A DNA stretch of 64,000 nt from Octopus sinensis (lineage: Eukaryota): NCBI RefSeq assembly GCF_006345805.1, contig NC_042998.1:191890001-191954000 (forward strand), in the 5' to 3' direction. The notes below the pieces were generated by a model. The model worked only from the letters and a program-made list of their open reading frames with translations, had not been told where the DNA came from and searched no databases. Shown piece by piece: positions 10,878 through 62,060 of this stretch. Numbering within the stretch: the stretch's first letter is position 1; every line of letters begins with the position of its first letter. Made by a program: the position numbers and the translations under genes.

Positions 10878-12083
10878 TTAGGTAATCCCATAAGTTCTGT
10901 CCGATTCTATCTTTTTTTAAAATTGAATGAAATTTAATGGTATGTCAGAATGACTAATGGAATTAAAAATTATTTTTATGCATTTGTGTACATTTAAACT
11001 AATTAAATATCATTTTACAAAATAATAGAATTAAAATTTCTTTGATAAAGACCATTTATAACATGGAAGTATCCAAAGAGCATTTAAGGCACATAAGGAT
11101 TTATGAGTACAAAAAAAGGAAACTCTGCAACCCAAGCGACTCGAAGCATGCACTCAGTTTATGGGAAAGAATGCTTGAATGAAAGAACTTGCAGAAGATG
11201 GTTTGCAAAATCCCAAAGGGGAGATTTCAGCTTTGAAGTTGAAGATGAACAGGACGTCCAGTTGAGTTTGATGATAAGCTCCTTGAGGCATTATCTGAAG
11301 ATAATCCTGCATTATCAGTTGGGGGATTGGCAATAAAACTTAGTTCAAAGCATATAACTGTTCATCGTCATCTTCAACAACTTGGAAAGGTTCCTAAACT
11401 TGGAAAATGGGTGTCTCATGAATTTTCCGAAAGCAACCGCAAATCCCGAGTTGACATCCGCTTTTCTCTCCATTCTTGCGAACTCCTTTCACCCTTTTTT
11501 GGATAGACTTGTGACTGGTGACGAGAAATGGATCTTCTATCGAAACGTTAAACGTCGTAAACAGTGACTTGGTAAAAGGGAAAAAGCTCAACCGTAACCG
11601 AGAAGAGAACTTCATGGGTAAAAGATTCTTCTCTCTATCTAGTGGGATTGCAAAGGAGTAATTCACTTGGAATTGTTACCACATAATGCAACAATCAATG
11701 CTCAAGTCTACTCTCAGCAATTAGAGCGTTTGATCCAAGCTTTCAAGAAGAAAATACCCAGTTTAATGATTCGAAAAGGAATGATGTTCATCAGGACAAT
11801 GCGCAACCCCACACTGCAAAGATCACTTCATAGAAGATCGAAGAGCTTGGTTGGGAAAAAAATTCCTCATCCACCTTATTCTCCTGACCTTGCTCCTTCA
11901 CACTACCATTTGTTTCGTAGTTTACAGAATCATTTGGGGGACATAATCTTCGCAAGCCAGGAGGAGGTCGAAACTGACATTTCAGAGTTGTTCGCTTTGA
12001 AACCAAAAGAGTTTTACATTGATGGGATTAAAACGCTTGTAAATAGATGGAAGGAAGTCATAGATAATCAGGGAAAGTACATT
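10878..12083 (+). mobile_element. Mariner (DD34D) DNA transposon, decayed; right TIR lost at a (TA)n tract
   Basis: TA|TTAGGT left end followed by the transposase remnant; the sequence runs into (TA)n at ~12083. Confidence 0.9.
11063..12083 (+). pseudogene. Mariner transposase pseudogene
   Basis: MEVSKEHLRH..GNSATQA..TCRRWFAK (HTH), WVSHE (WVPHEL), LVTGDEKW, HQDNAQPH, PHPPYSPDLAPSHYHLF (third catalytic D appears as H); several frameshifts and stops. Confidence 0.92.
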
Positions 12084-12090
12084 ATATATA

Positions 12091-12154
<64 letters not shown>

Positions 12155-12230
12155 GTATATATTTCATTTCATCTAGTTTCAGCTCACGAGCTGTGGCCAT
12201 ATATATATGCACACACACACACACACACAC

Positions 12231-24550: not shown

Positions 24551-26599
24551 TGGACAGTAGAAGACAACATTAAGAGTACACGAATCTGTGGAGCACTCAA
24601 CCGGTTGCAAGTTAATTCTACGAATAAGAATTCAGGTGGTTGGACATCTGAATATCGTGGAAACTGACGAAAAGCCCATCATTTCTACATTGTATCTATT
24701 CTACTGCTAAACTTCTACACACCTCTCATAACGTAGTCTTATAATTTACTACTGATTTTTAAGACACTTGCAGAATTTTACCAGTAGAATATAGAGGGAG
24801 TAGAAATGGTGGTTTCTTCGTCAGTTTCCACGATGATCATTCATATTTTCAACCAGGAATTAATGTTTAACTGGTCGAATATTTCAGGCATTCGTGGACT
24901 CGTAACATTAAACATGCTAATTTCTATTCCACACAGAGCAACACATCTCTCCCGTATCTATTCCTTTTTTTTTTTTCATCATCCCTAATACGTATCCCCA
25001 TGTTCCACACAATGAAAACGTTACCTAATCGATCATTAAAACTACTACCACCTACGCTTGTCTTCCTAGACGCAGGATTTTGAAAACACCAACGTCATAA
25101 TATCGAACCTGAACATTTACCGGTTTAAATCCAGCAGTGAAGGTGCGTCTACCGATTCATGGGCACTGTACCTCCTTTAATCTGACTATCTTTAAAGACG
25201 TAAATATCGGAATTTAGTGCATGCAATTGTATTACGTGTTTTCAAAGAAGTGGTTTGGATAGTTAAGGTGATGGTGAGACTGAGGATTAAAATATTACTG
25301 CTGATGGTAGTGGTGTAGGTGCTGGTGTTGGTATTGGTGTTGGCGGTAGTGGAATAGTAGTGGCAAAAAGGATGGAATGATGATGATAATAATTCTAAAG
25401 CTGAGGTGTGAATAAGCGAAATTTTATATCCATAGCAATGTTGTTGTTTGTTGTGTGTGATTACTATAATATTAATAGCAATGCCCACGCTACACTGACC
25501 ATGGGAATGGGAGGAACTCTATATCTCTCGTAGTAAAATTATTCTAATAATATTTATGTTAATGAATTCTTCCTTAATGAAATTCGCTTCAGGCACTCAG
25601 AACCAAGTTTTTATCGATCTGTTGGTCTGCTTTAATCGATTTTTCAGTTGTTCAAATCTTATAATTTTTGTTTATCCAATTTCTTCGTTTTCTTTATCAC
25701 ATCAGTTACTTTCGTGAAAATATTTGTTTTCCTCTTTTTAATCCATTAAATTTTACATTTGCTATATAACATCCACGTTCGCTCATTTCAAGTTTTCCAT
25801 GTTTCTTTCTGTTTTACTGTGGTTTTTCTTTTTTCTTTTTGTTTTACCGTTTTCATTTGTTTTATTTGAAATGAGTTCAGTGTTTTCTATGTTGTCAGAA
25901 TAATTTAAATCATACAGTTATTCTCTTTACTTCTCTTCTTCACAACCTTCAGATTCTCCTCAAATTATTATTGCTATTGTTGTTGTTGCTGTTGTTGTTA
26001 TTGCTGCTGTTGCTGTTGTTGTTGTCATTGTAGTTAATATTATTATTAGTAGTAGTAGTGGTACTTTTAACATATTGTTATCATTAGTATCATCATTATT
26101 AACGTAATTTTCGAATTGGTGGGAAATACAAAGAAGAGATCACCATGGAAATAATTTAGAACCATCTTATTAATCGTCCTCTCCACACAGAAAATAATCT
26201 TGCACAATAGTTTCAGATATAATGCAAAGCAAAATACACTGTTATTTTGACTGCTGTGTATTTATTTTACTTTTTATCGCAATAAACTACATTTGGTGCA
26301 CAGAATAATATAGTTCTATTATAGCAGTTGTAGAAGGTAAGTTAAGTAGCTAGTGGAATGGAGAACTGGAGGATCTTCACATGAGTTATTAACTCAATCG
26401 TATGCAAAGTATGTAATTATAATTTGTGAGGTGTATGCTCTTTATTTTACGTTGCTTCAGTTTGAAATGTCTGGCATTTTCTGAAAAAATACTTTTCGGT
26501 GTTTTGAGTATAAGCTGTGAAAAGCTTCTTAGGAAGAGAAACAAATGGATAAATGTATACATTTGGTGCAGGCGTTATCGTCTATCATTTACCTTTTAA

Positions 26600-33092: not shown

Positions 33093-33515
33093 TATTTCTT
33101 TATTACCCACAAGGGGCTAAACACAGAGGGGACAAACAAGGACAGACATAGGTATTAAGTCGATTACATCGACCCCAGTGCGTAACTGGTACTTTATTTA
33201 TCGACCCCGAGAGGATGAAAGGCAAAGTCGACCCCGGCGGAATTTGAACTCAGAACGTAGCAACAGACAAAATACCTATTTCTATTTCTTTATTACCCAC
33301 AAGGGGCTAAACATAGAGGGGACAAACAAGGACAGACATAGGTATTATGTCGATTACATCGACCCCAGTGCGTAACTGGTACTTAATTTATCGACTCCGA
33401 AAGGATGAAAGGCAAAGTTGACCTCGGCGGAATTTGAACTCACAACGTAACGGCAGACGAAATACCGCTAAGCATTTCGTCCGGCGCGCTAACGTTTCTG
33501 CCAGCTCGCCGCCAT
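33093..33515 (-). mobile_element. SINE family A tandem dimer inside a single TSD
   Basis: Two bodies and one head; TSD atttaaacc(c/a)aaatacc at 33076-33092 and 33516-33532. Confidence 0.9.
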
Positions 33516-41867: not shown

Positions 41868-42190
41868 AATTTTAGAATATCTTGTCCACCCAGCTTTAAC
41901 TGAAACTACTCGTAAATAGATTTGTAGTATTCACTTGATCATTATTAGCTCACACTTTTACCTACGGATCTCGTAGCCCCATGAATAGTAGATTATATAG
42001 GCTTCTAATATATTGGGCTTCTAGGCTTCGTTTCTAGGCCATGTTTTCTTTCCTATTCCTTCTTCCCTTTGTTTATATTGGATGCACTTGTTCTTTACTC
42101 TGATGAAGCTCCGTGCCTTAATCCGAATATCCTATGAAGACGTTTTCTCCATTCTGATTATTTGTATGTATATATATATATAATTATATA

Positions 42191-42713
42191 TAGATTTGAA
42201 AATACTAAGAATCAAACATACCCGTCCGATATCTGTAACATCGGACAAACCATGCCAGACACCCAGTACTAGCGAATCCAAAAATACGAATGAGATCTAT
42301 TATTCTCCCTGTCCGCCCACGTGAGTCATAGAGCATTCCATTTCTACAGAGGTAAAAACTACAGTTCAAATTCTTGGAGAGAAAGCATTATATTGTTATC
42401 AAAAAAGGACGGGTATGTTTGATTCTTAGTATTTTCAAATCTAAATCAGAAGAAATCTCTGAGCTGATGAAGGAAAAGTGGCGTTTTACCCACAAATCCA
42501 GAAACAGACTGTCCTCGGGTATCGTATATGGATGTGATCTTTCATTGTTTTTCCCTTATACCTATGTGAGTTATTTTTCTGAGTATGCATTGTCTGGAGA
42601 CTTTTATTTGAAGTTGAAGAAATAGCCAAATTTTTGGCTGCTATTTCTGAAAAGTTCGGTGTGTGGTAAAGTGAATTCTTTTACTTTACCATATTTTTAT
42701 AAATTAATACTTA

Positions 42714-42715
<2 letters not shown>
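42191..42715 (+). mobile_element. Penelope-like element 3' remnant (decayed GIY-YIG plus pLTR with hammerhead) between (TA)n tracts
   Basis: IGQT at 42240-42251 followed by R..K/E (YIGQT...R..EH-like); perfect 37-bp inverted duplication 42191-42227 / 42407-42443; hammerhead immediately downstream. Confidence 0.65.
42458..42519 (+). ncRNA. Type-I hammerhead ribozyme, intact catalytic core
   Basis: tctgag CTGATGA a-gga-aaa-gtgg-cgttttac-ccac-aaa-tcc-a GAAA CAG-A-CTG TC ctcggg. 6-bp stem I (2 G-U), bipartite stem II, stem III ACAG/CTGT, GUC site with predicted cleavage after 42513. Confidence 0.8.
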
Positions 42716-42762
<47 letters not shown>

Positions 42763-49048: not shown

Positions 49049-49276
49049 GTATCTGTTTCTTTATTACCCACAAGGGGCTAAACATAGAGCGGACAAACAA
49101 GGACAGACAAACGGATTAAGTCGATTACATCGACCCTAGTGCGTAACTAGTACATATTTATCGACCCCGAAAGGTAAAGTCGACCTCGGCGGAATTTGAA
49201 CTCAGAACGTAACGGCAGACGAAATACGGCTACGCATTTCGCCAGGCGTGCTAACGTTTCTGCCAGCTCGCCACCT
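49049..49276 (-). mobile_element. SINE family A monomer
   Basis: Same head and body as 10216-10447 with a small deletion; no clear TSD. Confidence 0.88.
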
Positions 49277-61097: not shown

Positions 61098-62060
61098 CAG
61101 TGTGTTCGGACAAAATTTAAAGATTTTTTTTCTATCCGCTTTTTTCGGGAACAGCTTGGTGTAGTGGTGAACACTCAAAGGCGTTGGAGAGCATTATGAT
61201 TACATTTCAAGCTGAGTAAAAGTGGCATGGAAGATAGGAAGTCTATCTGAATACTGGAAACGAGTTACCCGTATCAAAATGCCTACATGATGACTGCTGC
61301 CGAATGCCCTGTTTTCACTGTAAAGACTGTAAGACATGACATGAGCAGATGTAACAGAGACGACGAAACCATGACCAGCAAGAAAGGACACAACAGGCGT
61401 TCTGACGGTGCCCATACGCTGGAATTCATCCCCACATATTTGAATAGGGAGTTAGTTTCAATTCAGAAGGCTGCAACGAGGACAACGAATCCGTGGTCAG
61501 CAAGAAAATATTGATCATTGGGTATTCCTTCAATGATTGTGACGCCATGACGCTCATCATCTTTGAATAGGGCCTTAGACTCAATTCAGAAGGCTATCTA
61601 AAGTTGCTGCCGACTGGAGAAGATTACCGCGGGGAAGCTATATGTGTGGCAGTAAGGATTTGGTTCCCTGTCATACCGCCGAAAAGTTTCAGAAGTGGTT
61701 GTCGGAGAATTTTTACGACTTCACAAACCCCTCTTTCTATCATCGTAATTCCACAAATTGTAATCCCATGGATAACTATGTGTGGGGTGTGGTGAAGAAG
61801 AACTGCTCTACCTGCTGCACCAAAGTTAAGTTGGTGGTCAAAATCAAGGAGGTGATCGAAGAGCTTCCTTGGGACACAGTGAGGGACGCATGTGCCAGGT
61901 TTCAGAGGCGTCTTGAGGCCATGGTAGAAGAAGGGGAAACCGGCCACTTTCAGTACACTGTTATCTCCCAGCCATAATCTAGCTGATATGTTTTTTGATT
62001 AGGTACTATGTATTCTGTTCCTGTTATGCAAACTGTCATATTTAGCCTCAATAAAGTGTA
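61098..62060 (+). mobile_element. Tc1/mariner superfamily (DD37D/maT-like) transposon remnant
   Basis: TA|CAGTGTGTTCGG left end; ORF 61642-61977 DLVPCHT..QKWLSENF..NSTNCNPMDNYVWG..ACARFQRRLEAMV resembles QD.APCH...SPD.NP.D..VW; right TIR not recognisable. Confidence 0.75.

Follow-up and report, generated by a model that had tools for sequence, protein, structure and literature searches.

The element at positions 42191–42712 of the window (the whole 64,000-nucleotide stretch of Octopus sinensis contig NC_042998.1 that was analyzed) is probably a single truncated copy of a young, non-coding 562-bp hammerhead tandem repeat, set as two back-to-back arms into a TA microsatellite, the family being an animal non-LTR retrozyme that likely borrows a Penelope-type enzyme. 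The copy is composed of unit positions 82–299 in inverted orientation followed by unit positions 263–562 in forward orientation and six bases of the next unit; it is thus shorter than one unit and holds a single ribozyme. Each arm differs from the reference unit at two positions, the alignment of the inverted arm reaching unit position 302 with one mismatch, and the outer ends of both arms are 3′ ends entering TA runs. When the element was used as query against its own genome, positions 1–218 and 217–522 were found in opposite orientations in other copies. The 14-bp direct repeats that flank it carry the same AATT interruption and are suggestive of a target-site duplication, a flank match of at least 14 bp being seen also in 6.6% of the mismatched flank pairs used as control. 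The features of this copy, which is probably an inert and ordinary fragment, are as follows.

42179–42192, plus strand: left copy of the 14-bp direct repeat in the TA run, candidate target-site duplication (suggestive only)
42191–42408, minus strand: inverted arm, unit 82–299, 3′ end outward into the TA run, 99.1% identity to the native unit L011:1801–2362
42191–42227, minus strand: first copy of the 37-bp repeat, unit 263–299, covered by both arms
42240–42257, minus strand: empty 18-bp target site (unit 233–250) of an L1/Tx1-like LINE, the reverse strand of which gives the IGQT codons at 42240–42251
42407–42408, no strand: junction of the arms, with a 2-nt microhomology
42407–42712, plus strand: forward arm, unit 263–562 and the first six bases of the next unit, 99.3% identity, stopping at the main 3′ end of the family
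42407–42443, plus strand: second copy of the 37-bp repeat
42458–42519, plus strand: type I hammerhead motif, predicted cleavage after 42513
42625–42684, plus strand: block corresponding to unit 481–540, about 90% identity to the sister family against 78% overall
42712–42725, plus strand: right copy of the 14-bp direct repeat, where the right TA run begins

The search of the genome (2.72 Gb, 13,516 contigs) returned at least 153 matches, mostly 95–100% identical, with 40 of 894 candidates scored, and a 21-nt core pattern was matched exactly 314 times, its reversed control giving none. The native form is a 562-bp unit (reference unit L011:1801–2362) repeated head to tail in arrays that reach eight full units among the loci fetched, and in none of its six frames did the unit match a Pfam family at the cut-off. 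The traits that define a non-LTR retrozyme, namely head-to-tail repeats, a type I hammerhead in each unit and no protein coding, are therefore all present; tandem type I hammerhead repeats have been described under this name (PMC7229834). Among 49 units the divergence was 0.59% within arrays (60 pairs) and 2.09% between arrays (1116 pairs), and both arms of L064, a six-unit insertion, have private variants in common. Two 3-kb loci of one contig, L116 and L117 (G000:C10411:17196–32026), were full of units and possibly belong to one array of more than 20 units, either satellite-like or a source locus.

A sister family, reached through loose ends in sequencing contigs, counts 62 pattern matches and is 75–85% identical over the unit, the set having been picked with a pattern that fixes six core bases. 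Its loci (L138–L167) show the same two-arm anatomy with GUU instead of GUC and hold no intact LINE target motif, and this family is older than the 562-bp one. The blocks best conserved between both, unit 1–30 (95%) and unit 481–540 (90%), compared with 78% overall, flank the main 3′ end, and by its conservation the second block is a candidate recognition signal adjoining that end. Three short head-to-head elements without ribozyme (L046:2905–3263, L053:2621–2842 and L019:1200–1345) have only unit 481–540 in common. In sequencing run X16 the contigs covered this block several-fold more deeply than the remainder of the unit, and it may therefore be common to many families.

The hammerhead motif contains CTGATGA (42464–42470), GAAA (42501–42504) and GTC (42511–42513), all where the original prediction had placed them, and the 6-bp stem I it proposed is formed by 42458–42463 with 42514–42519, two of the pairs being G-U. 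Stem II comprises 42472–42474 with 42497–42499 and 42478–42481 with 42490–42493, leaving an extra A at 42471 and another at 42500. These residues do face each other, in line with the A-A apposition described earlier as non-canonical, but the oddity is limited to the A before G12: hammerheads of Penelope-like elements (PLEs) carry an unpaired base at 9/10.1 (PMC4209133), so that the first extra A conforms to type and the departure from the canonical form is confined to the second, between C11.1 and G12. The apposition represents the family consensus, since the A after the core is kept in 113 of 113 fetched copies and the A before GAAA in 111 of 113 (the core itself is intact in 103 of 113); the sister family keeps both residues as well (98%). 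No paper on an extra A before G12 was found in the literature. The Rfam hammerhead models gave no match in the window (E ≤ 1) or in 41900–42720 (E ≤ 10). A search for relatives that keep stem III but replace the A behind the core gave 7 matches against 5 in the control, three of them being indel variants of the 562-bp family, and this lead was set aside.

The ACAG/CTGT motif proposed as stem III is also there, but its four pairs leave a 1-nt loop and do not form in a monomer. The near-palindrome at 42504–42512 has a monomer pair probability of 0.01 and a self-duplex energy of −6.9 kcal/mol, and is predicted to suit a dimer. In the predicted folding of the full unit and of the window copy stem II forms and stems I and III do not, stem I having a pair probability of about 0.01 when the circular unit is folded and of 0 for the window copy; activity, if any, should then need dimers or the help of a protein, as reported for a lizard PLE ribozyme (PMC11167929). 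As to the view that this is the best candidate for an active ribozyme, it is indeed the only well-formed hammerhead in the window (a loose type I descriptor matched three times, with a proper stem II in 42458–42519 alone), but it has little prospect of being active where it lies, as the copy holds one ribozyme only, whose stem III is of the dimer type and whose stem I is predicted unfolded. The multi-unit arrays elsewhere are better candidates. Low activity and a need for dimers have been described for PLE hammerheads (PMC4209133), and one of nine predicted frog retrozyme dimers was cleaved in vitro (bioRxiv 10.64898/2026.07.22.740005). Two further core-like sites were seen in the window. At 42100–42140, 90 bp to the left of the element, a second CTGATGA is followed by GAAG, not GAAA, without a match to the fetched loci, and is perhaps the decayed ribozyme of another repeat. 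The region 24650–24840 has head-to-head CTGACGA motifs (24664 on the plus strand, 24824 on the minus strand) with similar flanks and no well-formed hammerhead, and resembles another two-armed remnant.

The insertion footprint of the family was analyzed on the fetched copies. Outward 3′ ends enter (TA)4 within 30 nt in 60 of 67 cases, and they concentrate at two places, unit 555–562 (34/67) and unit 101 (15/67). Two arms were seen in 27 of 40 non-redundant loci, a total inflated by the selection, as the proportion was 10/20 among loci picked by similarity and 17/20 among those picked partly for head-to-head cores. Direct repeats of at least 12 bp flank 7 of 26 two-armed loci, some of them spurious, against 7% of control pairs. 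Tandem and inverted 5′-truncated copies, a tail at one end and a bias towards microsatellites are the marks of PLE insertion (PMC8557442), and a PLE protein has been reported to nick and extend both strands at AT-rich DNA, starting at two internal sites of the RNA (PMC11167929). The combination of tandem and inverted 5′-truncated copies, two preferred ends and microsatellite targets is found in the 562-bp family, and this footprint points to a Penelope-like helper. The link to PLEs made in the original prediction is therefore probably right, albeit through the insertion footprint and not through an endonuclease remnant or a terminal repeat.

A scheme that would produce such copies starts with the transcription of multi-unit arrays, whose ribozymes would cut as dimers to give unit-length and possibly circular RNA. 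This RNA would be the template of a Penelope-like protein that nicks each strand of a TA run and primes cDNA synthesis at both nicks, copying in each case from an internal position of the RNA; the two resulting arms would then be joined through a microhomology of 2 nt. For the window copy, one arm would come from the main site (unit 562 plus 6) and the other from a TA-like internal site (unit 299), the 37-bp inverted repeat would be the part copied by both arms, and the product, with its single ribozyme, would probably be a dead end. A circular template accounts for array-private haplotypes; a homogeneous linear multimer or later homogenization would do so too. No sequencing run carrying the unit is listed as RNA on record. 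A 597-nt contig was recovered from runs X1 and X8, of two studies, which are RNA by guess only; the X1 contig forms a closed cycle of one unit variant, a closure that a tandem array or DNA gives equally, and its diagnostic variants occur in none of the 114–165 fetched copies that cover each site.

The strongest competitor of this scheme, although a good deal less likely, departs from it only in the role of the ribozyme and of the circle: the hammerhead would be vestigial, the family spreading through linear read-through transcripts of arrays that are homogenized after insertion. The extra A before G12, the poor predicted folding and the position of the arm ends, which show no accumulation at the predicted point of cleavage (unit 369/370), speak in its favor, the geometry of the arms is equally compatible with a linear multimer and a circle, and ribozyme mutants left PLE insertion in vitro unimpaired in the experiments described in PMC11167929. 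Against it stand the compensatory changes in three helices and the palindromes kept between families that are 22% apart. Taken over 15 distinct sequences drawn from the two families, 270 cells were scored, of which 97.4% are paired, compared with 27–55% in slid-structure controls. Two-sided changes affect four of the 18 pairs, located in stems I, II and III, a count reached by 59 of 500 shuffles in a control that ignores relatedness where there are essentially two lineages. The sister family swaps stem III among perfect palindromes, and three different palindromes keep this stem.

A second possibility concerns the origin of the unit, which could be the detached pLTR of an autonomous PLE, the arrays being truncated products of such an element. 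In frogs, 24 of 57 retrozyme families match Repbase elements, among them pLTRs (bioRxiv 10.64898/2026.07.22.740005), and the PLE sample examined here was small (50 loci, with 150 of 5029 candidates scored). Among these 50 GIY-YIG loci no autonomous partner with the ends of the unit or its ribozyme was found, and the unit matches in two of them, L046 and L053, are separate short insertions. Moreover, the fetched arrays have no PLE reading frame next to them, their long coding neighbors being an L1/Tx1-like LINE and unrelated repeats, and many-unit arrays that lack an ORF are frequent, so that the detached-repeat origin appears improbable. The genome does contain PLE-type GIY-YIG domains in open frames of up to 883 aa, some of which are followed by a hammerhead-like motif and TA runs. 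The loci L120, L121 and L122 (G000 C1, C3 and C6) belong to a young PLE-type family with a 781-aa frame of reverse transcriptase and GIY-YIG, preceded in L120 and L122 by an overlapping upstream frame of 320–480 aa, and this family provides candidate helpers.

The LINE just mentioned is a 5.5-kb element of two ORFs placed, in several arrays, between two copies of unit 233–250 (an 18-bp duplication). It is absent from the window, where the target site of the copy is empty. It is exemplified by L062:2104–7580 (also L061, L071, L079 and L080), with a 1026-aa open part of ORF2, and is sometimes found in tandem. Pfam recognized a zinc knuckle in ORF1 and APE, reverse transcriptase and zinc-binding domains in ORF2, zf-CCHC falling just below the cut-off. 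The closest solved relative is human L1 ORF2 (E 1e-60) and the Atlas returned only generic reverse transcriptase clusters for the protein; from its motifs the element is putatively of Tx1 type. The full-length 5′ ends of one subfamily follow unit position 250 in 18 of 18 cases, the contact being direct in 15 and made via the duplication that separates tandem LINEs in 3. At the 3′ side, 50 loci were examined, leaving out eight with only the last 33–44 nt and two diverged partial ones; the remaining 40 comprise 17 whose end is followed by the unit, 4 where the duplication and a further LINE follow, and 19 at other places, these last often in tandem clusters at other recurring sites. Clusters at other targets were noted in L101, L105, L108 and L109; L106, L107, L196 and L197; L189 and L190; L186, L187 and L194; and L096 and L202. 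Several of these targets end in a CCGAT- or TCGAT-like motif, and the flank in L096 holds a CTGAGGA core-like motif. The last 44 nt of the LINE resemble short elements at window positions 33094–33139, 33284–33329 and 49056–49100.

LINE-occupied units span several haplotypes that are also seen among free units, one LINE locus has a private variant in both copies of the duplication, and the far flanks show no significant correlation with the LINE (Mantel p 0.2–0.8, 11 loci), which points to independent insertions. The same far-flank result gives no support to the idea that unit and LINE were co-mobilized as one element. Should the LINE itself be the helper, the units would be its terminal repeats or passengers and the inversions the product of L1-type twin priming. 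Units do bracket full-length LINE copies, and L1 enzymes produce 5′ inversions. Yet the independent insertions and the 18-bp duplications around the LINE, also in tandem, are those of an element entering a target, and the LINE ends at its own tail and not in TA runs, all of which makes it still less probable as the helper than the detached pLTR was as the origin of the unit.

The bases of unit 228–243 in the 5′ copy of the target differ from those of the 3′ copy and of free units. In particular, a C at unit 241 occurs in 4 of 15 LINE 5′ flanks and in none of 49 free units, and these four loci are exactly those, 4 among the 11 complete ones, that have one LINE 3′ variant in common, a coincidence expected by chance once in 330 but noticed post hoc; the Mantel test on near flanks was not significant (p 0.29). 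From the C241 pattern it is likely that transcription of the LINE begins within the host unit and that its RNA replaces bases of the 5′ target copy. On the sense strand of the unit no snRNA-type promoter was detected, the matrix score being ≤ −0.1 compared with a shuffle median of 3.5, with a small matrix built from 7 non-redundant upstream sites of U1 and U2 genes. In the U1 and U2 genes an ATCAGT-like motif is found at −55 to −60 in 39 of 40 loci (L206–L245) and is a candidate proximal promoter element of this animal. Among the matches listed for other organisms, no contig bridges the LINE-unit junction (31 letters on each side). Tentatively, three tiers may be envisaged: a circular RNA with a hammerhead of double-bulged stem II, a Penelope-type enzyme that copies it from two starts into TA runs, and a LINE specialized on the retrozyme, whose transcript would start in the host unit, at a unit promoter or at the ribozyme cut, and overwrite the 5′ target copy in the manner of R2 in rDNA.

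The stretch upstream of the ribozyme had been read as the decayed remnant of a GIY-YIG endonuclease, because of an IGQT motif in a frame full of stops. Translated in 12 frames with X for each stop, the stretch gave no match to GIY-YIG in Pfam (E ≤ 10), and the best score against a profile of 30 GIY-YIG domains from the same genome was 2.0 bits, in a frame other than that of IGQT, the 90th and 95th percentiles of the shuffle control (n = 300) being 1.8 and 3.2 bits. The four IGQT codons are the reverse strand of the LINE target site in a non-coding unit. In the native unit they lie antisense to the ribozyme, and it is the inversion in the window copy that brings them ahead of it on the same strand. 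Nor are the stops a sign of decay, since in 27 of 46 full units showing IGQT the peptide is identical down to its stops; in the sister family the place of the motif is taken by PRQT. Profile scores, antisense position and PRQT rule out the remnant, and the resemblance is due to chance. A tblastn search with two PLE proteins (E ≤ 0.001) found no PLE reverse transcriptase frame in the window. Two reading frames in the window, at 11643–12173 and 61579–61974, are by their motifs putative fragments of mariner-type transposases. A decayed autonomous Penelope element, with endonuclease remnant, inverted partial terminal repeat and ribozyme, is accordingly very hard to sustain. It could appeal to IGQT preceding the ribozyme in the window copy and to inverted partial repeats and hammerheads as PLE traits (PMC8557442, PMC4209133), but it would have to explain, besides the profile scores and the antisense motif lost in the sister family, why copies 95–100% identical with stops in common show no decay.

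The exact 37-bp inverted pair (42191–42227 and 42407–42443) was confirmed and is not extendable on either side. It is not the inverted partial terminal repeat it was taken for but an overlap particular to the window copy, which arises because unit 263–299 is present in both arms. A TA-flanked MITE with 37-bp terminal inverted repeats, the fallback offered for 42193–42441, can practically be discarded, for although a perfect inverted repeat does adjoin TA, the element continues some 270 bp past its second copy, the junction of the window copy recurs in none of the other 26 two-armed loci and no terminal inverted repeats are common to all copies. With neither a GIY-YIG endonuclease domain nor a reverse transcriptase frame, the window element is not an autonomous PLE, and it is not a MITE either.

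The helper of animal retrozymes has so far been proposed, not shown, from co-occurrence and similarity to pLTRs. A young family with a footprint of two arms, two start sites and TA targets makes the Penelope hypothesis testable by the existing in vitro PLE assay, and its array-private haplotypes offer a test of the circular-template idea. A hammerhead with an extra A on both sides of the 10.1-11.1 pair, missed by Rfam, would widen the search space for such ribozymes if it cleaves. The 562-bp family is thus a good test system, although the window copy is probably inactive. In the literature that joins cephalopods, hammerhead ribozymes and retrotransposons only PMC8557442 was found, and a LINE targeting a retrozyme was not found in print.

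In comparison with known systems, the family resembles the animal non-LTR retrozymes of coral, mussel and axolotl in its non-coding head-to-tail repeats with one type I hammerhead per unit (PMC7229834), as well as in its low GC content, its occurrence as dimers to multimers and the co-occurrence of PLEs (PMC7229834; bioRxiv 10.64898/2026.07.22.740005). A mismatch at the base of helix II is shared with an axolotl retrozyme variant. The 562-bp unit is longer than the 170–400 nt given in PMC7229834 but within the 51–972 bp of bioRxiv 10.64898/2026.07.22.740005. Unlike the retrozymes described in the available parts of these two works, it is scattered as two-armed insertions in TA runs and has two preferred ends; unlike animal retrozymes as presented there, it has no pLTR partner among the 50 GIY-YIG loci, and its cleavage and circles are predicted.

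With the minimal hammerheads of PLEs the motif shares the extra nucleotide between A9 and G10.1, the G10.1-C11.1 pair, a long helix II and a palindromic helix III, the second extra A between C11.1 and G12 setting it apart from those in the available text of PMC4209133. Tandem and inverted truncated copies, an optional tail and microsatellite targets are further likenesses to PLEs, whereas the two preferred ends of the unit are about 100 nt apart compared with a tail of 30–40 bp in the PLEs described in the portions consulted of PMC8557442 and PMC11167929. The 562-bp unit also differs from PLEs in having no reverse transcriptase or GIY-YIG frame.

Target-specific LINEs of the Tx1 clade are known, such as Tx1L in Tx1D, Tx1-Mar in Mariner-N4 and Keno in U2 (PMC4494074), and the LINE found here is like them a two-ORF, L1-like element that occupies a single site within a repeat of many copies and shows a target duplication and tandem insertions. 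It differs from the examples in the accessible part of PMC4494074 in that its target is a hammerhead repeat and in that the 5′ copy of its duplication has lineage-specific bases that are missing from the 3′ copy.
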